Source of the DNA: an uncultured Pelagibacteraceae bacterium
GTDB lineage: Bacteria; Pseudomonadota; Alphaproteobacteria; Pelagibacterales; Pelagibacteraceae
Length of the DNA: 64,000 bases
Assembly: GCA_902618855.1 (NCBI GenBank)
Contig: CACNCD010000005.1
Location: 23,907-87,906 of the forward strand
Reading direction: 5' to 3'
Shown one piece after another: positions 11,070 to 64,000 of this stretch. A program made the translations under genes and the position numbers. How positions within the stretch are numbered: position 1 is the stretch's first letter; each line of letters begins with the position of its first letter. The notes beneath the pieces were generated by a model. That model made no database searches, was not told the DNA's origin, and was given only the letters and a program-made list of their open reading frames with translations.

Positions 11070-12523
11070 TTAATCCACCAATCGCTTGTATTTAATTTAA
11101 AATTAATTTTTTCTTCCATAGAGTATGCAATATTTAGAATTCCCTGTTCATCAAAAGGTTTTCCAATAAGCTGGAGTCCTAATGGATAGTTGTTTTCATC
11201 TAAACCTGCTGGAATTGAAATACCAGGTAATCCTGCTAAATTTACAGGAACGGTAAAAATGTCATTTAAATACATAGAAACGGGGTCGTTCATTTTCTCA
11301 CCTACTTTAAAGGCTGAGCTTGGTGTAGAAGGAGTTAAAATTGCATCAACTTTATTAAAAGCTTCATCAAAATCGTTTTTTATAAGTTTTCTTACTTTTT
11401 GAGCTTTAAGATAGTAAGCATCATAATAACCTGATGAAAGAACATATGTGCCTATCATAATTCTTCTTTTAACTTCGTCACCAAATCCTTGAGATCTAGT
11501 TTTTTCATACATATCAATTAAATTTTCACCCTCGACTCTAAATCCATATTTCACTCCGTCATATCTGGCTAGATTTGAAGATGCCTCTGCTGGTGCAACT
11601 ATATAATAAGTAGGAAGAGCATATTTTGTGTGTGGTAAAGAAATATCAATAATTTCAGCCCCACAATTTTTTAAATATTCTTTACCATTTTCCCATAATT
11701 TTTCTATTTCAGCAGGCATTCCTTCAACTCTATATTCTTTAGGAATACCAATTTTTTTGCCTTTAATATTTTTATTAAGATGAGAAAAATAATTTGGCCG
11801 TTTAAAATCAATTGATGTTGAGTCTTTGTTATCGAATGAACTTATTACCTCAAGTAAAAGCGCACAATCTTTAACATCTCTTGTCATTGGACCTGCCTGA
11901 TCTAAAGAGGATGCAAAAGCAACTATTCCGTATCTAGAACAACTTCCATACGTAGGCTTTAATCCTACAGTTCCTGTGAAAGAAGCTGGTTGTCTAATTG
12001 ATCCACCTGTATCAGTACCAATGGTAGCTGGTGTAAGTTTTGCGGCTAAAGCAGAAGCAGAACCACCCGAAGAACCTCCAGGTACTAAATTATTATCAAT
12101 TGGGCTTAAAACATTTCCAAAATGACTTGTTTCATTTGATGAGCCCATAGCAAATTCATCACAATTCAATTTTCCTAGTAATATAGCTCCTGAATTCCAG
12201 AGATTTTGAGTAACGGTAGACTCATAACTTGGAACAAAATTTTCTAAAATTTTACTACCTGCTGTTGTTTTAACATTTTTTGTACAATAAAGATCTTTAA
12301 CTGCTATAGGAATGCCTGGAAGTTTTTTTTCAAGATCTGGTTTAGAATCAAATTTTTTTGAATTTGCTAGAGCATCATCGAAAGTTTCTTCGATATAAGT
12401 ATTTAGTTTTTTTGATGATTTTGATCTTTCTATATAATTAGAAGTAATATCTTTTGAGCAAATTTCTTTAGATTTAATTTTTTTAACAAGCTCAGTTAAT
12501 GTTAAATTTGTTATATCAGTCAT
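11066..12523 (-). CDS. gatA: Asp/Glu-tRNA amidotransferase subunit A
   Basis: Amidase signature [31 protein letters not shown]; ATG at 12523 overlapping the gatC stop. Confidence 0.98.
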
Positions 12524-23601: not shown

Positions 23602-24222
23602 ATGGATATTGAGATCAAAAAATCAAAAAAACCCGTAGAATACGCTAAAGCAATAAGTTTTTTGGAGAGTAGAATTGACAAAATTCTAAAAAATAAAGCA
23701 CCAGAGTTAATATGGATATTAGAACATCCATCGATTTACACAGCTGGGAGTAGTTATAACGAAAGAGAAATTTTAGATAAATCTATAAATTTATATAAAA
23801 CAAATCGAGGTGGAAAAATAACGTATCACGGACCAGGTCAAATTATTTTTTACTTTGCCATAAATCTAAATAATAGAAAAAAAGATATTAGAAATTTAAT
23901 TAACAAAATTGAAAATACAATAATTGAAACTTTTAAAAATTATAAAATTAAAGCATTTGCGGATAAAAAAAATATTGGTATTTGGGTTAATCATAAAAAG
24001 AAAATAAAAAAAATAGCAGCAATAGGAATAAGAGTTAGAAGGTGGGTTGCTTATCATGGTTTTTCAATTAATGTTAATACAGATTTAAAGAAATATAAAA
24101 AAATAATTCCTTGTGGAATAAAGGATAAAGATTTAATCAATCTCAGCAAAATTAAAAATCAATCTTACAAAAATTTAAAAAAAGATTTAATAGAAAATTT
24201 TATAAAGAACTTAAAAAGTTAA
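23602..24222 (+). CDS. lipB: Lipoyl(octanoyl) transferase
   Basis: [39 protein letters not shown]. Confidence 0.96.
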
Positions 24223-54741: not shown

Positions 54742-55953
54742 TTACTTCCATCTATTTAATAAATATGAAAATTCATCTAATATTTTTTCATAGTTTTCTT
54801 TAAATATATCCTCACTACAAATATTTTTAAAATATTCATAATTCTTAGCAGTAAATTCATTAACTTTATTTTGATCGAAACAAATTTCCAGTTTTTTAAC
54901 TAGGTCTATTGGCGAAGAAATATCAATGCTAATTAAATGATCATTTATTTTATCGTTGGGAATTAAATCTTTTGTATAAAAAATTATTTTTTTAAAATAA
55001 AATGATTCATAAATTGGTAGATTTGTTGGACCCCCATAAGTTGGCATTACAACTGCATCTGAATTTAAATATAATGATATAACTTCATCATCACTTATAA
55101 ACTGAAGTATCTTAATATAGTCGGTTAATTTTTTATTTAAAATTAATTCTTTTATATATTTATAATTTCCCTTGTTTCCACCACAAAATACAAAAAAAAA
55201 TCTTTCATCATTATTATTTTTTAAAATTTCGGCTACATCTATAATATATTTATGATTTTTATGCGGCCAAAATTGCGCAGGATAAAAAATAATTTTTTTA
55301 TCATTAGGTAATTTAAAATTATTAAAAAATTCATCATATTGAATTTTATTAAATTTTTTTTCTTTATAAAGTGTTGGTAGCATTGGAATAAAATTTTGAA
55401 CTACTACTTTATCTTCAGATGCGTTATAAAAATCTATTAAATCTTTTTTATTAGATTTATGAGCAACAATAATTTTAAAGGCTCTAAATACGATTTCTTT
55501 AAACAATTTTTCTTTATATTCAAAAGTAAAATTTAAATTGTGCTCTGGAAATTGGCTATTTTTTTTATGATCAAGATCCCATATATTCGATATAAAAGTT
55601 ACCTCTTTACAATACCTACACATTGTAGAAGGTCCTAAAAAAATTATTAAATCATAATTATTTTTTCTTATAAAATTTGTAAAGGGGTGATTTATTTTTA
55701 TTTTATTAAATAAGTCTCTAATTAAATCTATCTCAAAAAATTGAATAAGATATCTAAAAAAAATATTATTTTTATATAATTTACTTTTAATACTTTTATT
55801 TTTTAAATAATTTTCAGTTTCTTTATCCGTGATTATTAATTCTATTGATGAATTATACTTTTTAATATCAAACAATAACAATGAAGATTTAAGTGATTGA
55901 AAAAATCCTCCACCCATTTTGTATGAACCTTCAAGATAAATGCCAATTTTCAT
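54742..55953 (-). CDS. Glycosyltransferase family 4 (GT-B)
   Basis: IFYPAQFWPHKNH, LYLNSDAVVMPTYGGPTNLPIYES. Confidence 0.82.
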   Translation of the reverse strand: MKIGIYLEGSYKMGGGFFQSLKSSLLLFDIKKYNSSIELIITDKETENYLKNKSIKSKLYKNNIFFRYLIQFFEIDLIRDLFNKIKINHPFTNFIRKNNYDLIIFLGPSTMCRYCKEVTFISNIWDLDHKKNSQFPEHNLNFTFEYKEKLFKEIVFRAFKIIVAHKSNKKDLIDFYNASEDKVVVQNFIPMLPTLYKEKKFNKIQYDEFFNNFKLPNDKKIIFYPAQFWPHKNHKYIIDVAEILKNNNDERFFFVFCGGNKGNYKYIKELILNKKLTDYIKILQFISDDEVISLYLNSDAVVMPTYGGPTNLPIYESFYFKKIIFYTKDLIPNDKINDHLISIDISSPIDLVKKLEICFDQNKVNEFTAKNYEYFKNICSEDIFKENYEKILDEFSYLLNRWK

Positions 55954-55970
55954 TATTCAATTTTTAAATA

Positions 55971-57101
55971 TTATTTTAAAATATTTATTAAAGTATTTTT
56001 AATAAATTTTAATTCCTTTAAAGTTAAACCTAAACCAGATGGTAAATAAAATCCATTTTTTGATATAAACTCAGAGTTTTTAAGTTTTAAGTTTTTAAAA
56101 TAACTATATTTTTTAAGTGCATCCTGCTTATGAATTGGCCAAAAAAAAGGGCGCGTTCCTATATTTTTCTTTAAAAGTTTTTGAGTAATTTTTTTTGCTG
56201 AGATCTTGCTACTTTTCTTAATAACTATCCCAAAGACCCAATATATATTTTTACAGTATGAAAGTTTAGGAGGTTGTATAATTATGTCTTTAATATTTTT
56301 AAAATTTTGGTAATAATAATTCCCAATCTCATATTTTCTCTTGATAATTTGTTTAATTCTTTTTAATTGATTTAGCCCTAAAGCTGCTTGTATATTTGTA
56401 TAACGGTAATTCCATCCTATATCATAATGATTAAATCTATTGTTTTTTAATCCAAAACATAAATTTCTATAATCTCTTATTTTTTTATTAATCAAACGAT
56501 TATCAGTTAATAACATCCCTCCTTCACCAGTAGTAATATGTTTATTTGCATAAAAACTGAGAACGCTTATATCTCCAAAACTTCCACAATATTTTTTTTT
56601 ATATTTTAAACCTAATACTTCAGCGGCATCTTCAATCAAATATAAATTATATTTTTTAACAATCTTTAAAATTTTATCCATATCGTTTGATAAACCGTAA
56701 ATGTGGGGTAGCATTATACATTTAGTTTTATTTGTAATTTTTTTTTCTATATCTTCAATTTTTATATTCCATGTTTTAATATCAACATCTATTAGTACAG
56801 GTTTAGCTGAATTTTTAATGATTGCATTTACATTGGATATAATTGTGAATGAGGGCATTATTACTTCATCATTTTTTTTTAAACCTAGAGCTTTAATCGC
56901 TACCTCAAGAGCAGCGGTACCACTACTGACTGCACATCCAAATTTACGATTAAGAAATTTTGCCAATTTAATCTCAAATTCTTTTACATCTGGTCCTTCA
57001 GAAGACACCCATCCGGATTTAATAGCTTTAAAAACGGCTAGAGCATCACTATTATTAAGTAATGGCGTATTTACAGGAATAAACTTTTTATATTTTGTCA
57101 C
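55971..57101 (-). CDS. DegT/DnrJ/EryC1/StrS PLP-dependent nucleotide-sugar aminotransferase (perosamine synthase-like)
   Basis: VSSGTAALEVA, HIYG, IEDAAE, SFYANKHITTGEGGML (PLP Lys), GWNYRYTNIQAALG, LPSG; GTG start. Confidence 0.92.
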   Translation of the reverse strand: MTKYKKFIPVNTPLLNNSDALAVFKAIKSGWVSSEGPDVKEFEIKLAKFLNRKFGCAVSSGTAALEVAIKALGLKKNDEVIMPSFTIISNVNAIIKNSAKPVLIDVDIKTWNIKIEDIEKKITNKTKCIMLPHIYGLSNDMDKILKIVKKYNLYLIEDAAEVLGLKYKKKYCGSFGDISVLSFYANKHITTGEGGMLLTDNRLINKKIRDYRNLCFGLKNNRFNHYDIGWNYRYTNIQAALGLNQLKRIKQIIKRKYEIGNYYYQNFKNIKDIIIQPPKLSYCKNIYWVFGIVIKKSSKISAKKITQKLLKKNIGTRPFFWPIHKQDALKKYSYFKNLKLKNSEFISKNGFYLPSGLGLTLKELKFIKNTLINILK

Positions 57102-57102
57102 A

Positions 57103-57522
57103 TTAATCTTTAATAATTTTTTTATCCTTATTATTTACATAAGGTCCTTGTTTAACTTCGATAATTTTAGTTTTTTTTAGAATTGTAAAACCATGTCCAC
57201 CTTTAAAGAGTATTATAATATCTCCAGAATTCAATATTGTATCTTTTTTAATATCAGAGTTTTTTAAATCAAAAAATTTAATTTTAACTTTACCTTTTTC
57301 AATCAAGAGAACTTCTGTACAATAATTTATAACTCTAGGTTTTTTAACATGAATATGAGAGGTAATTTTATGATTTTTTTTGTGGTTTAAAAAACCTAAT
57401 TGTATTAAATCGCTACTTTTGGTTACAAAATCTACACCCTTTTTTATAAATTTATTTTTTTTTTTTATAATTATGGCATATAGAATTTTATTATGTCTAA
57501 TTTCCAAAACTCTTTTTTTCAT
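57103..57522 (-). CDS. Cupin-fold protein (WbuC-like, polysaccharide-cluster associated)
   Basis: H.H...E.L.I..G, GDII....GGHGF, EVKQGPY cupin motifs; context upstream of a sugar aminotransferase. Confidence 0.7.
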   Translation of the reverse strand: MKKRVLEIRHNKILYAIIIKKKNKFIKKGVDFVTKSSDLIQLGFLNHKKNHKITSHIHVKKPRVINYCTEVLLIEKGKVKIKFFDLKNSDIKKDTILNSGDIIILFKGGHGFTILKKTKIIEVKQGPYVNNKDKKIIKD

Positions 57523-58320: not shown

Positions 58321-58406
58321 TGGTGCCCTCGGCCAGACTCGAACTGGCACTCCCAAAAGGGCAAGGATTTTAAGTCCTTTGTGTCTACCAATTTCACCAC
58401 GAGGGC
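58321..58406 (-). tRNA. tRNA-Leu(TAA)
   Basis: GCCCTCGTGGTGAAATTGGTAGACAC, AAGGA-CTTAAAA-TCCTT, long variable arm, CAGTTCGAGTCTG, CCA; 86 nt. Confidence 0.98.
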
Positions 58407-58489
58407 ATTTGTGAATTTCATGAGTGTTTATGCTAATATTTATAATTGAACAAGATGAATAAGTAAAATTTTTTTATTTTATCTCTTCA

Positions 58490-58509
58490 TGCTCTGGTCT
58501 TGCTCTGGT
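58490..58509. repeat. 9-bp direct repeat TGCTCTGGT x2 with 11-bp period (candidate integrase arm-type sites)
   Basis: TGCTCTGGT at 58490-58498 and 58501-58509, GC-rich within an AT-rich spacer between tRNA-Leu and the helicase gene. Confidence 0.6.
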
Positions 58510-58523
58510 TATCCTAGAAAATC

Positions 58524-61500
58524 CTATATTAATTTTTGGATATATCTATCAACTTTTCTCAATTCTTTTTTTGGATCAAGCCACCAATCTGTTGACCATA
58601 TTCTATAAATATTCCATCCTAGGTCCTCTAAAATATTTTGTCTTAGAATATCGCTGTCTCTTTGAGATTTAGAGGAATGATAAGCTCGTCCATCACACTC
58701 TATGCCTGCTATAAAGCCATCAGGAAAGCTTTTATGTTTTATTCCAAGATCTATATAAAAACCTGAAACCCCTACCTGTGGAACAACTTCATATCCCATA
58801 TTTTTTAAACCATTCATAACAAATACCTCAAATTCACTCATAGGTTCTTTTCCTTCTGAAATATCACCTATTTCTAATTTGCCAGTTTTTGCATATTCAA
58901 TATAATTTTTTAAAATCATTCTTCCCTGAGCAGTTCCTTCTTTGAGCTGGACATCATTTGGATGCATTGATGTATAAAGATGAATCTCTTTTTTAGCTCT
59001 AGTAAATAATACATTTAATCTTCTGTGACCTCTATCAGGATTATTTATAGGTCCAAATGTTTGTAAAACTTTACCATGTTCATTAGGACCGAACAAAGTT
59101 GAAATAAAAATAGCATCTCTCTCATCTCCTTGTACACTTTCCAAATTTTTAACCTCAAATTTTTCAAGTGTATTATCCCAAGATTTTATATAATCTGATA
59201 TGTAGCCTTCTTTTGTTTCTCTTAAACGAAGTTCTTCTTCAATGAGTTCTTGCTGAAATATATTCATAGTCACTACTAAGCAGCTCTTAGATTTTTTATC
59301 ATTATCATTTTTCCTAATATTTTTTTTCATAAAATCAAGAAGTCCACTTACTAAAGCATCTTTTTCTTGGTTATTAATTTTACCTTTGTACAAAGCTTTA
59401 GCAAAATTATGATGAATGGCTTTATTAATACTTGGTGAAGGAGGAATAATTAATTGATTTTCATAAAAATGATGATTTGAAAAATTAATCAATTTTTCAT
59501 TTCTAGATCTATAGTGCCAACGTAACATTCTCATTGGTTTAAACCTTGTCAAAGCTAAATCTAAGATAGATTCTTCAACAAGATCCTCTTCTGTATCTTC
59601 TTGTTCTGTAACAGCAAAAAAATCTGATGGAGCTAATTGTTGAGGATCACCAACAATAACACATTGTGATGATCGTGCTAAACCACCAATAGCATCTTGC
59701 ATTCTCATTTGAGATGCCTCATCAATGATTAGCAAATCAAATAAATCTTCTTGTGATCTTACCAATTCAGCAAGTGTAAGAGGTGACATCATAAAACATG
59801 GTTTTAGTTCAGAAAGAGCCTCGGAAGACTGTTTTATAAATTTTCTCAAAGAAATTCTTGGTTTCTTTTGACCAATAATTCTCTCTATCAATCCTAATTC
59901 TGTTAATTTTTTAGTTGGACCCCTGCTAATACCTTGGGTTATTCTTTTGTTAATCAATTTATTTCTAAGATGATCTTTTTTCTTAATAGTAATTACTTTA
60001 TCTACCTCTTCATACTCAGCTCGTAAAGAATCAAGTTTTTGACCATTATATTTTGAAAGATTTGGATTTTCTTTATAAAAAAATTTCAATAAATAATTAT
60101 AATAAAGAGCATAAAAAATATTTTTTAAATTTTCATATTTAGATTGATTTTTATCAAAAGTATTCAATAAAACATTTTCACAACTTGAGTTATTTTTTCT
60201 AGCACCAATAAATTCAGTCCAATCATCAAGGGTTTTTAGCTCAAGTTTATTAAGTTTATTTAAAACAACTTCTGTGTCACAATTGTAAAAATCTTCTCCA
60301 AAAAAATCTTCATCATTAATATCATCTTTAATTTCATCGTAAAAATTAATGATTTCTTTATAAGTTTTGGAAATATTATTTGTACAACCCTTAATATCCT
60401 TTAATATTTGTTTATTACTTAATAATAAATTTATTGTATCTTTTTCAAAATATTTATCTAATGATGATAAATAGGTCAAAAGATATTCGATAACTTTTAA
60501 GTTTGTTTTAAAACCATTAAAATCTTTTTTTAATAGGTTTGATACAACGTTATCATCATCAATATCTTTTTTTTGAGACTGTAAGTCACGGTAAACCTTT
60601 TTGTATGAGGACAATAAATCTAAATCTTTTATTGCACTATTTTTTCTATAGGAGTTGGATTTTACCATACTTAAGTATTCTTTTTTGGCATTTCTAAAAT
60701 CAGATGATGCAAATGACAAAATATTTGAATTATTTATATTTTTCTTAATTTTTTCTAAATTTTTGAAATGTGAATGTTTAAATTTGAATATTTCATTAAC
60801 CCTTTTTTCAATCTCAAGTTTTGGACCTAAATTCTGTATCTTTTTTGAAAACAAAGTAAGTTTTTCTATGTCTTTTAAAGAATTAATATTTTTTAATACA
60901 ACAGAAAACTTATTGTCATTATCAAAATCGTTAAATAAATCTAAAAAAATTTTAATTTCCTGAAAAGTATTTAAATTTTTAAATTCTTTAATTTTTTTAT
61001 TTTTTTGTAATATTGAAACTTCAGATTTTAATTTATCTAAATTAGAACAAACTTTAGAAAGCTTTTTTATTAATTCCTTTTTTTCATACGGATTTAAATT
61101 TTCACCTAAAAAACCATACCAAGGATGATTATTGATATTTTTGTATTTAGATTTAAATTTTAAAGATTGTTCCTCAATTTTATCCAAGTTTTCAGCAATA
61201 ACCTTTATTCGATTTGGTGTTATATCCTCAACTTTAACAGTTTCAAAAAGTTTACTATTATTATCTTCAAAAATTTCATCGAAAATTTTTTTTTCAAATT
61301 CCTTATATTTTGCCCTAAGTCCGTAAAGTTCATACAAATTTTTTTCAGAGGCACCTACCTCAGAAGTAATTAATTTTCTATATTCTATTAATTCTTCTTT
61401 AATCTTTTTTTCTTTTGAGATATCGAATTCTAATTCTTTCTTAGATACTTTGTTAGATTTCAAATTAATTCTTTGTTTTATATCGTCAAAAAAATTGGCC

Positions 61501-63032
61501 TTATTCATTCCAGTGCTGGTGATATGTAAACAAAAATCACTTAAACCAGCATCTTGTAATTTTTTATAAACAACATTTCTAGCTGCTGTTTTATCAGCAA
61601 TAAATAAAACTTTTTTATTTTCTGATAATGCGGCTCCAATCATATTGGTAATTGTTTGTGATTTACCAGTTCCTGGAGGACCTTGAAGTGCTAAATTTTT
61701 TTTATTCATCACATCAACTATTGCACTAAATTGTGATGCATCAGCTTGGTTTAACAACAGGGGCACTTTTCCACTAATTTCTTTGTCATCAACCTCATAC
61801 TCTTCTGATCCACTACCATCAGAGTCCTCAGATCCAGAAAATATATCTTGTAAACTTTGTTGTGAACCAAGATCTATCCAATTGTTTGGGTCAAGATCAT
61901 GATACATGGCCATTCTTTGAAATTGAAAATGACCTAAAGTCATAAATCTTTTAAGACTCCATTGTTTTCTACTTTTTATTGAATTTTCAAATTTTTCAAA
62001 ATATTTTTCTGGAGTATCTTCTTCTTCAACATCATCAAGAACTATTCCAAAATCTTTTTCAAATTTTGCTTTAAGAGCAACATTTATTTGTAATTCACCG
62101 TTTGTTGTATTCAAATGAAATTCAGAACCTTTAGCTTTCTTTATTTCATTAAGCTCAACAGAGAGTAGGAGTAAAGGTGAAAGTAATTTTACATCACTTG
62201 ACTTTTTTTCATACCATTCAACAAATCCTAAAGCTAAAAATAAAGTATCAATACCCTTCTCATTAATTGCTTTATTGGCTGTTCTCCTTATAAAAGATAA
62301 TTTTCTATCAAGTTGTTCAGGTAATAATATAGTTTGTAAATAATTATCTTTATGTTTTTCAGATATTTCCTGTTTAGATTTCGGTAATATAAAACTTGGG
62401 TTAATACCACATTTTTTTGCATATTCTGTCAAACCAATTACTTCAGGTGTAGATCTTTTTTTCATTTTAAGTTTAACTCTAACTCTATCTTTAAGTTCTC
62501 TATCTAATTCTAAGGACTCTTTACTAACACCATCGTAATCATCTCCCATTTTTTCAACTTTTTTTAGATAAGCATCATCTTCTTTTTGTGCTCTCTGAAA
62601 TTCCATTTTAAATTCTCTTGTTCTTTCGTCTTTAGGTTCAAAATCTGGTTCGGGAAGAGATTTAAATATGTAAGTTTTTCCTGATGTTAAATCTTCAAAA
62701 ACTCTATCAGGTAATTCATCTACTATTCTTGTGTAGCCTCTACCTTTATCACTATGCTTAAAATTAATTAGTTTATTTTGATTTGTAGTTGAGCCAACTA
62801 AAATTTTTTCACGGAGTTTTTTAATGCTATTTTTAGCAAATTTAATTTTAGCATCATCAGATTTTTCATTCATTTTATTTTTGCCATTATAATCTATTTT
62901 TTTTCTAACATTTTCAATATGTTTACAAGTGTTTCTGTAATAAAAACTTTTACACTCACACTTGTAATTATCTCCTTCTTTAACAATTTTGTAAACATTT
63001 CCTTTACTACCTTTAACTTCAAATGACTCCAT
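58524..63032 (-). CDS. SWIM Zn finger-DUF4011-SF1 (UPF1/Dna2-like) helicase-Vsr/MTES_1575-like endonuclease protein (Hhe-like defence protein)
   Basis: N-terminal CECKSFYYRNTCKH; DUF4011-like KLREKIL...NKLINFK and EKGIDTLFLALGFVEW...PLLL; Walker A GPPGTGKSQTI; KPCFMMSP, FDLLIIDEASQ, GDPQQL, HYRS, VQGDERD, RLNVLFTRAK; C-terminal SEFE...IDLGI...IECDG.AYH...RQ.ILE.LGW.IYRIWSTDW. Confidence 0.88.
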   Translation of the reverse strand: MESFEVKGSKGNVYKIVKEGDNYKCECKSFYYRNTCKHIENVRKKIDYNGKNKMNEKSDDAKIKFAKNSIKKLREKILVGSTTNQNKLINFKHSDKGRGYTRIVDELPDRVFEDLTSGKTYIFKSLPEPDFEPKDERTREFKMEFQRAQKEDDAYLKKVEKMGDDYDGVSKESLELDRELKDRVRVKLKMKKRSTPEVIGLTEYAKKCGINPSFILPKSKQEISEKHKDNYLQTILLPEQLDRKLSFIRRTANKAINEKGIDTLFLALGFVEWYEKKSSDVKLLSPLLLLSVELNEIKKAKGSEFHLNTTNGELQINVALKAKFEKDFGIVLDDVEEEDTPEKYFEKFENSIKSRKQWSLKRFMTLGHFQFQRMAMYHDLDPNNWIDLGSQQSLQDIFSGSEDSDGSGSEEYEVDDKEISGKVPLLLNQADASQFSAIVDVMNKKNLALQGPPGTGKSQTITNMIGAALSENKKVLFIADKTAARNVVYKKLQDAGLSDFCLHITSTGMNKANFFDDIKQRINLKSNKVSKKELEFDISKEKKIKEELIEYRKLITSEVGASEKNLYELYGLRAKYKEFEKKIFDEIFEDNNSKLFETVKVEDITPNRIKVIAENLDKIEEQSLKFKSKYKNINNHPWYGFLGENLNPYEKKELIKKLSKVCSNLDKLKSEVSILQKNKKIKEFKNLNTFQEIKIFLDLFNDFDNDNKFSVVLKNINSLKDIEKLTLFSKKIQNLGPKLEIEKRVNEIFKFKHSHFKNLEKIKKNINNSNILSFASSDFRNAKKEYLSMVKSNSYRKNSAIKDLDLLSSYKKVYRDLQSQKKDIDDDNVVSNLLKKDFNGFKTNLKVIEYLLTYLSSLDKYFEKDTINLLLSNKQILKDIKGCTNNISKTYKEIINFYDEIKDDINDEDFFGEDFYNCDTEVVLNKLNKLELKTLDDWTEFIGARKNNSSCENVLLNTFDKNQSKYENLKNIFYALYYNYLLKFFYKENPNLSKYNGQKLDSLRAEYEEVDKVITIKKKDHLRNKLINKRITQGISRGPTKKLTELGLIERIIGQKKPRISLRKFIKQSSEALSELKPCFMMSPLTLAELVRSQEDLFDLLIIDEASQMRMQDAIGGLARSSQCVIVGDPQQLAPSDFFAVTEQEDTEEDLVEESILDLALTRFKPMRMLRWHYRSRNEKLINFSNHHFYENQLIIPPSPSINKAIHHNFAKALYKGKINNQEKDALVSGLLDFMKKNIRKNDNDKKSKSCLVVTMNIFQQELIEEELRLRETKEGYISDYIKSWDNTLEKFEVKNLESVQGDERDAIFISTLFGPNEHGKVLQTFGPINNPDRGHRRLNVLFTRAKKEIHLYTSMHPNDVQLKEGTAQGRMILKNYIEYAKTGKLEIGDISEGKEPMSEFEVFVMNGLKNMGYEVVPQVGVSGFYIDLGIKHKSFPDGFIAGIECDGRAYHSSKSQRDSDILRQNILEDLGWNIYRIWSTDWWLDPKKELRKVDRYIQKLI

Positions 63033-63041
63033 ATCTTTTAG

Positions 63042-63842
63042 TTAATTTTGATTTGACTGCTGTTTTACAAATGTACAAAAATTACAATCTTCTGTGAAGT
63101 TTGGAATAGAGGGATTATTTAGAATGTCTATTATTTTTGTTATATTTTCAAAGAAATCTTTTTCATCTCTCTTTAATGATGAATAAGATATGTTCATTCT
63201 CATATCGCAACTATTATTATTGTGACTTTGAATATCACTTGGATCAAATTGTAATATCCCCATATGAGTAATTGGGTTTAATAAAGGGGTTTTTTTACTT
63301 TTAGTAGATCCAGGTTTTGAAAATATTTGAGCGTAAGCTTCTAATTGGTGTTTATAATTCTCTGATTTGTCATCAGAAATTTTTGTAGTTTTAAAATCTA
63401 TTATACCATAACCACCTTTATCAAATTTAATTACGATATCTGGTCTTCCACCTAAAATGAATTCTCTGCCCTTATTATCTTTTAATGTTTCTGAAACTAC
63501 TCTTCCCGGAAGTTCATCTTTGTTCATAATTCTTCCAGAGGGTAATTCTTTTGTAAGATCAGAAGTATTTTTATCTTTATAATAAGCTTGTTGAACTACA
63601 TCAAATCTTGAAAAAACTGGTGGAGGAAAATCTTTAGGTCCAATTTTATGATTTTTTTCTAAATAAAAACATCTTTTACATTTCTTAGGTTTATAATCTA
63701 ACTCTGAAGGGGCTAAGACTAATATTTCATTTAAATTTTTACTTTTAATATTAGCCAATGAACTTGCTATATCAATGATATTTGATTTTTTTATTTGTTT
63801 ATTCTTTTTAAGTTTTTTATCCATTTTTATTATCTTATTCAT
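63042..63842 (-). CDS. PD-(D/E)XK (RecB/Cas4-like) nuclease with four cysteines
   Basis: LAPSEL...CKRCFY, GGRPDIV...IIDFKT, YKHQLEAYA (QxxxY), C-terminal CNFC. Confidence 0.82.
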   Translation of the reverse strand: MNKIIKMDKKLKKNKQIKKSNIIDIASSLANIKSKNLNEILVLAPSELDYKPKKCKRCFYLEKNHKIGPKDFPPPVFSRFDVVQQAYYKDKNTSDLTKELPSGRIMNKDELPGRVVSETLKDNKGREFILGGRPDIVIKFDKGGYGIIDFKTTKISDDKSENYKHQLEAYAQIFSKPGSTKSKKTPLLNPITHMGILQFDPSDIQSHNNNSCDMRMNISYSSLKRDEKDFFENITKIIDILNNPSIPNFTEDCNFCTFVKQQSNQN

Positions 63843-63843
63843 T

Positions 63844-63999
63844 TTATATCCTCTTTTCTTTCAACTTGAAATTAAGTTTAAATTTTTCTTCTAATAATTT
63901 TTCTTTGACTTTTAATTCTTCTAGATATTTTTGTTGTTTTTCTCTTAAAATCTTTTTAAGTTCTTCATTTGCTGAAAATAATTTTTTGCACTTAGGGCA
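63844..63999 (-). CDS. Partial (C-terminal) CxxC + charged coiled-coil protein, continues beyond the window
   Basis: Manual translation CPKCKKLFSANEELKKILREKQQKYLEELKVKEKLLEEKFKLNFKLKEKRI*; stop 1 nt before the nuclease ATG (TAAAATG junction). Confidence 0.55.
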   Translation of the reverse strand, partial: CPKCKKLFSANEELKKILREKQQKYLEELKVKEKLLEEKFKLNFKLKEKRI

Positions 64000-64000
64000 A

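Follow-up and report, generated by a model that had tools for sequence, protein, structure and literature searches.

Hhe (Gao Hhe) joins a DUF4011 domain, a superfamily 1 (SF1) helicase and a Vsr-like restriction endonuclease (REase) in a single chain, of which we take DUF3320, or a C-terminal extension, to be a further part. In the accessible part of PMC11232893, a table labels a 4.9-kb gene as Hhe. The accessible text of PMC13700489 describes Prometheus as a one-protein system akin to enzymes that act on R-loops, and already reports forms without DUF4011 or DUF3320 in 16 Lokiarchaeales homologues. Here we analyse a related locus in a 64,000-nucleotide (nt) stretch of DNA, hereafter the window, which covers positions 23,907 to 87,906 of contig CACNCD010000005.1 from an uncultured SAR11-type Pelagibacteraceae bacterium (assembly of 0.99 Mb, 88% complete). 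Three co-oriented genes encode an open reading frame (ORF) of 58 amino acids (aa), a 266-aa nuclease and a 1502-aa helicase, which a sequence-only reading had proposed to be an undescribed defence module of two or three components. Our analysis makes it probable that the helicase defends alone and fills an exchangeable slot behind the 58-aa ORF and the solo nuclease, which head an island at tRNA-Leu.

A 2026 survey reports 50 defence systems from 321 SAR11 genomes (PMC13712998, as far as accessible). Neither Hhe nor Prometheus is mentioned in its accessible text or in three supplementary files, and DUF4011, searched in the supplements only, was not met there either, so the helicase adds to the SAR11 defence list. 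The site itself is known from phages: the pelagiphages HTVC105P, 109P and 119P integrate at tRNA-Leu(TAA) according to the accessible part of bioRxiv 10.1101/410191, and that of PMC11796062 has partial tRNA repeats as the marks of cassette insertion in SAR11 islands, for the most part with no integrase.

Different genes follow the same nuclease in related islands

The gaps between the three genes are 1 nt (58-aa ORF to nuclease) and 9 nt (nuclease to helicase), as the sequence-only reading had stated and the contig confirms. The main features, in window coordinates, are as follows.

63844-64020, minus strand: 58-aa ORF, CxxC and Lys/Glu-rich, probable island header gene; its start, read from the contig, lies 20 nt past the window edge at 64000
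63042-63842, minus strand: 266-aa solo PD-(D/E)XK nuclease, Cas4/RecB/AdnA fold, 2+2 Cys, probable island header gene
63033-63041, no strand: putative cargo junction, where DNA homology to the closest islands ends
58524-63032, minus strand: 1502-aa DUF4011 - SF1 (UPF1/IGHMBP2-like) helicase - MTES_1575 REase, Hhe/Prometheus/PDC-S37-like probable cargo, final island gene
58321-58406, minus strand: intact tRNA-Leu(TAA), boundary of the island, 117 nt from the helicase stop

The two closest relatives carry the same ORF and nuclease in front of unrelated cargo. Genome G367 has the same tRNA-Leu site, regulator, small membrane ORF and 58-aa ORF with a 94% identical nuclease, behind which come an unnamed 292-aa ORF and then, in convergent orientation, a C5 methyltransferase. 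Genome G245 has the same header at a different site, and its nuclease (90% identical) is followed by a zinc-finger ORF, a 483-aa ORF, HerA, HNH and a C5 methyltransferase. DNA identity of the header amounts to 91% with G367 and 88% with G245, and it stops at window positions 63034 and 63052, respectively, that is, at the nuclease stop. In a third genome, G565, the helicase has no co-oriented gene upstream and hence no upstream partner. With other genes behind the 58-aa ORF and the nuclease in the closest relatives, it is unlikely that the three genes make up a multi-part immune system of a new kind. Taken with the other-clade nucleases described below, the exchange of cargo and the loss of homology at the nuclease stop suggest that the ORF and the nuclease form the head of the island and that the helicase is exchangeable cargo.

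The wider survey points the same way. Wide neighbourhoods were examined for 23 of the 30 genomes in which the nuclease was found and for G044 (24 in total, the remaining 7 being left out), and none of the 24 holds the helicase, so that the recurrent pairing of this nuclease with DUF4011 helicases expected for SAR11 did not appear. Instead, chance neighbours in a variable island, the outcome that the sequence-only reading had set against its own proposal, largely describe what was found. Other defence-type genes (restriction-modification, HerA or a helicase within ~6 kb) occur in 8/24 neighbourhoods. Methyltransferase, restriction, HNH or Pif1-like genes lie near the nuclease in G070, G358, G236, G278, G375 and G254, the G278 methyltransferase being assigned by clustering. 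In 3/24 (G339, G362 and G204) it is on its own, flanked by two core genes, which by eye we take to be gltX and lpxB; here "it" is the nuclease gene.

Some of these neighbourhoods have features of their own. The G245 cargo (L038:10368-16226) also includes a 108-aa ORF, and its HNH and C5 methyltransferase genes are convergent to the rest; its 483-aa ORF matches nothing in Pfam, PADLOC, NCBIfam or PHROG and could be an unrecognised HerA partner. Behind the nuclease of L007, L041 and L008 (G008, G342 and G074) lie an ATP-dependent DNA ligase and two conserved unknown ORFs, with a umuD/umuC-like pair beside this row in G008 and G342, and the arrangement may be a repair cassette. Genes with a neurotransmitter-gated ion-channel domain lie inside islands at L037:11529-15957 and L214:10214-11641 (Neur_chan_LBD, Pfam E 2.6e-11, for L037:11532-12728; the L214 gene by similarity).

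Distribution and trees of the nuclease and the helicase

The nuclease was found in 30 of 400 genomes of the order and the helicase in 0/400 (E<=1e-30), in draws with identical genus tallies. The nuclease count, the only one that rests on the unpublished genome G170, is a lower bound because the same query missed a distant member in G565. At lower ranks, the helicase occurs in 3/400 genus genomes and DUF4011 in 0/340 family genomes, the order, family and genus draws overlapping; the helicase is thus rare in SAR11-type genomes, as had been suspected from the sequence. A genome-wide search for DUF4011 in the five holders of the closest nucleases gave no match, its control being positive in 3/14 genomes.

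The trees of the two proteins disagree. SAR11 helicases are 54-71% identical and the nucleases near them only 21-30%. Helicase-near nucleases sit in three places in the tree, each beside helicase-free copies, and a single clade of the three SAR11 helicase-near nucleases was rejected by the approximately unbiased (AU) test (p-AU 0.00047; L215 is a long branch). Most simply, the helicase would move with islands of this type and come to lie behind any header that it meets there. The contig of G584, the third other helicase genome, ends upstream and gives no context, and L057, with the same arrangement, was not counted again. Among 152 distant helicase loci, of which 101 have the Walker A motif and the REase end and 61 of these have both flanks, only one (L071) has a nuclease-family member.

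Domains of the helicase and its SWIM-type segment

Pfam, PADLOC and NCBIfam bear out an Hhe-like protein with DUF4011, SF1 helicase and Vsr-like domains and without DUF3320. The segments of the helicase are listed below.

62919-63032, minus strand: SWIM-type finger at the N-terminus (C25, C27, C36, H38), optional and sharing the reading frame of the helicase
62871-62873, minus strand: Met54, approximately where SWIM-less relatives begin, a possible second start
62064-62786, minus strand: DUF4011 domain (residues 83-323), from Pfam
58545-58832, minus strand: REase_MTES_1575 (Vsr-like) nuclease domain (residues 1401-1496), from Pfam and invariant residues

In Pfam, DUF4011 scores 105.8 bits (E 2.9e-30) and REase_MTES_1575 119.4 bits (E 7e-35), the chain ending 6 aa after the latter; AAA_11/AAA_12 are above the cut-off, and DUF3320 (PF11784) has no match at E<=0.1. 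The motifs GPPGTGKS (451), DEASQ (1104), GDPQQL (1128), HYRS (1173), VQGDERD (1300) and IECDG (1444), together with REase residues D1428, E1445, D1447 and H1452, are invariant in 31 aligned sequences. The best model in the PADLOC library is PDC-S37 with 975 bits, followed by Hhe with 690 bits, these scores standing without thresholds or system rules; PDC-S37 is also the best model for the G467, G565 and L071 helicases. With NCBIfam, the helicase reaches 1032 bits for Hhe (NF042953; cut-off 2000, E about 0) and 879 for ProA (NF058533; cut-off 1500), and its relatives likewise fail the Hhe cut-off (1060-1455 bits). The nearest solved structures are SMUBP2, SEN1, UPF1 and DNA2, which are 5' to 3' SF1B motors.

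The SWIM finger and the missing DUF3320 had been taken to set this protein apart, and neither is special to the locus. Only one of the 120 best helicase homologues has DUF3320 (119/120 are without it), and 19/120 have a GreA/GreB-type domain instead (all among P0076-P0120; C-terminal in both that were checked). The family thus varies at its ends, and it is normal for its members to lack DUF3320. The GreA/GreB domain may tie the family to RNA polymerase. Judged from its domains, the helicase is a compact Hhe/Prometheus/PDC-S37-like DUF4011-SF1-REase protein, of a known kind and in a SWIM-bearing form new for SAR11, and by analogy it is likely to be a stand-alone anti-phage enzyme.

The N-terminal SWIM-type finger noticed in the sequence is present as a pattern, C25-x-C27-x8-C36-x-H38 (CxC-xn-CxH), kept in 13/13 sequences that carry the segment, and scores 15.3 bits against PF04434 (19.0 in P0013), under the Pfam cut-off of 19.6. 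The Atlas clusters nearest to it are SWIM-type at 0.91. The segment occurs in 12 of the 120 best homologues, a count in which three of the SWIM-less others are N-terminal fragments and some may reflect start-site calls. SWIM forms are scattered over one low-GC clade, the segment shows frame-keeping length changes across metagenome contigs, and it is absent at the DNA level in G467 and G565. A Met lies 8-16 residues past CKH in 13/13 SWIM forms, approximately at the start of SWIM-less relatives; as the 13 forms are related, this conservation amounts to about four independent lineages. From these comparisons, the SWIM finger is best read as an optional add-on to the helicase.

Free-standing copies of the segment were also sought. 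Among phages, one weak match lies inside a 156-aa ORF of a jumbo phage (E 1e-3); viral contigs gave none, genomes gave 3/340 matches, all with internal stops, and databases gave 3 short matches that look like fragments of this helicase gene. The sole lead on free-standing SWIM proteins is a set of Atlas clusters of 56-97 aa, one of them 75% viral.

The nuclease and the 58-aa ORF

Cys motifs were confirmed in all three proteins: beside the SWIM pattern of the helicase, the nuclease has C55-x2-C58 and C253-x2-C256, and the 58-aa ORF has CPKC. The nuclease matches PDDEXK_1 in Pfam at 30 bits and has a RecB-type D-DxK core and a QxxxY motif; C55, C58, D135, D149, K151, Q166, Y170, C253 and C256 are invariant in 22 sequences. 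An alignment-based model (pLDDT, the score predicted for the local distance difference test, 83) matches the folds of Cas4, AdnA, MGME1, RecE and lambda exonuclease (best Z 12.1), with a root-mean-square deviation (rmsd) of 3.8 over 174 aligned residues for Cas4 7mi4 (Z 12.1) and of 3.6 over 192 for AdnA 9np6 (Z 12.1). Since its Cys are arranged 2+2 rather than in the 1+3 of Cas4, we treat it as a Cas4/RecB-type nuclease and do not file it as Cas4; its TIGR00372 score of 29.5 bits is below the cut-off of 65. No cas gene was recognised among the listed island ORFs, and no genome-wide search for CRISPR arrays or cas1 was made. A phage origin of the nuclease was considered and set aside: tblastn gave no match in 50,697 phage records, none was confirmed in viral contigs with the single protein as query, and PHROG exonuclease matches are at family level only.

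The 58-aa ORF was seen with the closest nuclease clade only, at 3/27 SAR11 loci, two of them without the helicase. We tried to read it as an N-terminal remnant of DUF2130 and dropped the idea: the likeness is weak (10/1000 shuffles are as good, and there is no Pfam match), and the one longer match is partial and lies on a 519-nt contig. At L215:16215-17342 (G565) a DUF2130 gene overlaps the stop of the nuclease-family gene, and its N-terminus is weakly like the 58-aa ORF. Around 20 nt upstream of the ORF start, beside a strong AAGGAG ribosome site, lies a 12-bp perfect inverted repeat with a 9-nt loop (L001:2496-2528; contig C5 87946-87978; window-equivalent 64040-64072), which has no T-run and is therefore not a typical terminator.

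The tRNA-Leu island and its attachment site

Metagenome contigs from 2 studies bridge the nuclease-helicase junction in 2/4 runs (X3 record 12 and X8 record 24), and therefore this junction is not an assembly chimera; this comparison covered 61200-64000, short of the tRNA end of the helicase. A single RNA run gave two short partial matches to the locus, which say nothing about expression either way, and a promoter scan stayed at chance level (37 found, 35.1 expected). The proposed accessory position beside tRNA-Leu in core surroundings holds for the accessory character and the tRNA; the flank is not core throughout, as the island runs on for at least 3.4 kb past the window, up to the contig end. 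There the contig holds a 78-aa ORF, a divergent 168-aa CII-like regulator and three further genes. The far end of this genome's island lies outside the assembly.

Two features mark the near end.

58368-58406, minus strand: probable attachment core, the 5' 39 bp of tRNA-Leu(TAA), with a second copy at the far end of related islands and a match in the HTVC105P integrase-RNA polymerase spacer
58490-58509, no strand: pair of 9-bp direct repeats with an 11-bp period, 14 nt past the helicase stop, seen directly in the sequence and not listed by the repeat finder

The island sits 5' of the intact tRNA-Leu(TAA), and the 5' 39-40 bp of this tRNA are repeated at island edges in G367, G195, G257 (twice), G309 and G122. 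In G257 the two copies (L048:1452-1490 and 12468-12506) are 11 kb apart, which suggests tandem integration at a single site. The tRNA half and ~15 upstream bases (58364-58421) match pelagiphage HTVC105P at 93% over 58 bp, in the spacer that separates its integrase from its RNA polymerase. Short direct repeats with a 10-11-bp period lie on both arms of the islands, and G367 and G195 have pairs of 11-bp period at the position corresponding to the pair here; going by established integrase biology, they are likely arm-type sites of a tyrosine integrase. The excised circular island was also sought: the junction pattern gave 3 viral contigs, all of them T7-like phages with their own phage attachment site (attP).

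An integrase together with a primase was found at only 2 of the searched loci (G119 and G138), with one integrase query, which could miss distant ones. These loci (L047 and L050) are tRNA-Met elements with a tyrosine integrase, Prim-Pol/AAA_25, an HD protein, a CII-like gene and the nuclease; they also hold an 852-aa Castor/Pollux-like channel and a 1223-aa secreted protein, and are satellite-like, possibly autonomous relatives of the islands. The 168-aa CII-like (CP76/YmfL) regulator of the present island (L001:2990-3496, window-equivalent 64534-65040, plus strand; CP76 E 1.8e-5, phrog_101 E 3.8e-7) has homologues at 10 further places in the 24 nuclease loci and is a second marker of the island type. 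G367 also has a 33-bp copy of the middle of tRNA-Thr(TGT) (L037:5791-5823), the mark of a second small insertion site; in the counterpart interval of the window, 54742-57522, lie genes for a glycosyltransferase and a DegT aminotransferase and a 139-aa ORF.

Discussion

We propose that a promoter upstream of the 58-aa ORF would drive all three genes by read-through, and such a shared header promoter would explain the tight gaps without partnership. Judging from its family, the UPF1/IGHMBP2-type motor could load on the single-stranded or R-loop nucleic acid that arises in a phage infection, move 5' to 3' using ATP and bring its own C-terminal Vsr-like domain to cut, with DUF4011 and the optional SWIM finger tuning recognition. 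The upstream nuclease would then be a likely single-strand DNA nuclease that serves the island, in recombination or by degrading incoming DNA, whatever cargo follows. This model of stand-alone attack is built by analogy with Hhe and with Prometheus (accessible text of PMC13700489 for the latter).

Several observations weigh against it. A nuclease-family gene lies no more than 1.3 kb from the helicase at all three SAR11 loci with context, this window included; the one in G467 directly adjoins the helicase start (0-nt gap), and the one in G565 is 1.3 kb downstream of the helicase, behind three small ORFs. A fourth case outside SAR11, L071, has such a gene just downstream of the helicase, in an element with primase and integrase genes. 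The helicase is under the curated Hhe and ProA cut-offs and without DUF3320, and all four Prometheus domains are reported as essential in the accessible text of PMC13700489, which cites the primary paper. Many of the searched genomes are incomplete (215/401 at 90% or more).

The recurrent proximity could mean that the nuclease is a facultative helper, a general effector that adds to protection by degrading the DNA ends or single strands which any defence cargo behind it produces, rather than a dedicated partner. In addition to the three helicase loci, the defence-type genes at 8/24 other loci, often with gaps of -11 to +10 nt, speak for this, as does an Argonaute-cooperating Cas4-family nuclease (9IAB) among the closest solved relatives; however, 16/24 loci have no recognisable defence neighbour, 3 of the nucleases stand alone, and a shared island type accounts for co-location without any cooperation, so we hold such help to be unlikely. 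A dedicated complex of two or three parts, comparable to the pairing of nuclease and helicase in Hachiman HamA-HamB, would fit the tight gaps, the junction in 2/4 metagenome runs and the second adjacent pair in G467. Against this, the closest nucleases (90-94%) come from genomes without the helicase, the trees are not congruent, the 58-aa ORF is confined to the closest nuclease clade and mostly without the helicase there, and the helicase has a nuclease domain of its own, which together leave a dedicated complex very improbable.

The helicase might also have no anti-phage role and instead serve its host or island by R-loop resolution or DNA repair, as do its IGHMBP2/SEN1 relatives. Its nearest solved relatives and its scores under both cut-offs would agree with this, and a DUF4011 gene is core in every examined P. 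aeruginosa isolate (PMC10250203, accessible part). Yet the helicase is rare and patchy at genus, family and order level, sister islands have methyltransferase/nuclease and HerA cassettes in its slot, and its top family matches are all defence models, which makes a role outside phage defence distinctly improbable. Finally, it is conceivable, if a long shot, that integrase-poor SAR11 cassettes in phage attachment sites such as tRNA-Leu(TAA) form a plug-in immune slot for streamlined cells, in which the 2+2-Cys nuclease captures or assists interchangeable defence genes right behind its stop. Here the Hhe-like cargo would have gained a small phage-type SWIM gene as a sensor or decoy, the internal Met giving forms with and without SWIM.

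This reading of the locus removes a plausible but false 'new system' and leaves a rare Hhe/Prometheus-like gene carried by a tRNA-Leu island at a pelagiphage integration site. The header nuclease is a usable marker for further SAR11 defence cargo, as 8/24 of its neighbourhoods held some. If the compact form without DUF3320 is active, it would show which Hhe/Prometheus domains are dispensable.

Comparison with known systems

In the literature searched, which excluded the primary Hhe and Prometheus papers, we found no published description of a SWIM-fused DUF4011 helicase or of this nuclease-headed island, and the main text of bioRxiv 10.1101/2024.01.29.577857 has no mention of the name PDC-S37, the supplements being outside the search. 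The island belongs with SAR11 tRNA-linked islands and pelagiphage bacterial attachment sites (attB), although the accessible parts of PMC11796062 and bioRxiv 10.1101/410191 describe neither a header of CII-like regulator and nuclease nor a slot for defence cargo. The nuclease has the D-DxK core, QxxxY and fold in common with solo Cas4, MGE-Cas4, ACE1 and the AdnA-AddB nuclease domains; it differs from the Cas4 family in having 2+2 Cys rather than an iron staple of one N-terminal and three C-terminal Cys (PMC12094033, accessible part). The joint conservation and co-evolution expected of a Hachiman-like two-gene nuclease-helicase system were not seen for the nuclease and helicase here.

For the helicase, PDC-S37 (PADLOC PDLC05009) is the best model, matched in one stretch from residue 67 to 1501 (model 7-1341 of 1550), with ~210 C-terminal model positions unmatched and the SWIM finger extra. 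Prometheus ProA (NF058533) shares the same core over residues 56-1501; the helicase misses ~345 N-terminal and ~200 C-terminal model positions, including DUF3320, and hence does not have the four-domain architecture. Compared with Hhe (NF042953; PADLOC PDLC02194), the helicase is ~300 aa shorter than the model, its match ends at model position 1683/1797 with half of the cut-off score, and it has a SWIM finger in front and no DUF3320. The two nevertheless share the same single chain of DUF4011, SF1 helicase and Vsr-like REase, and the relatives of the helicase likewise behave as single genes.

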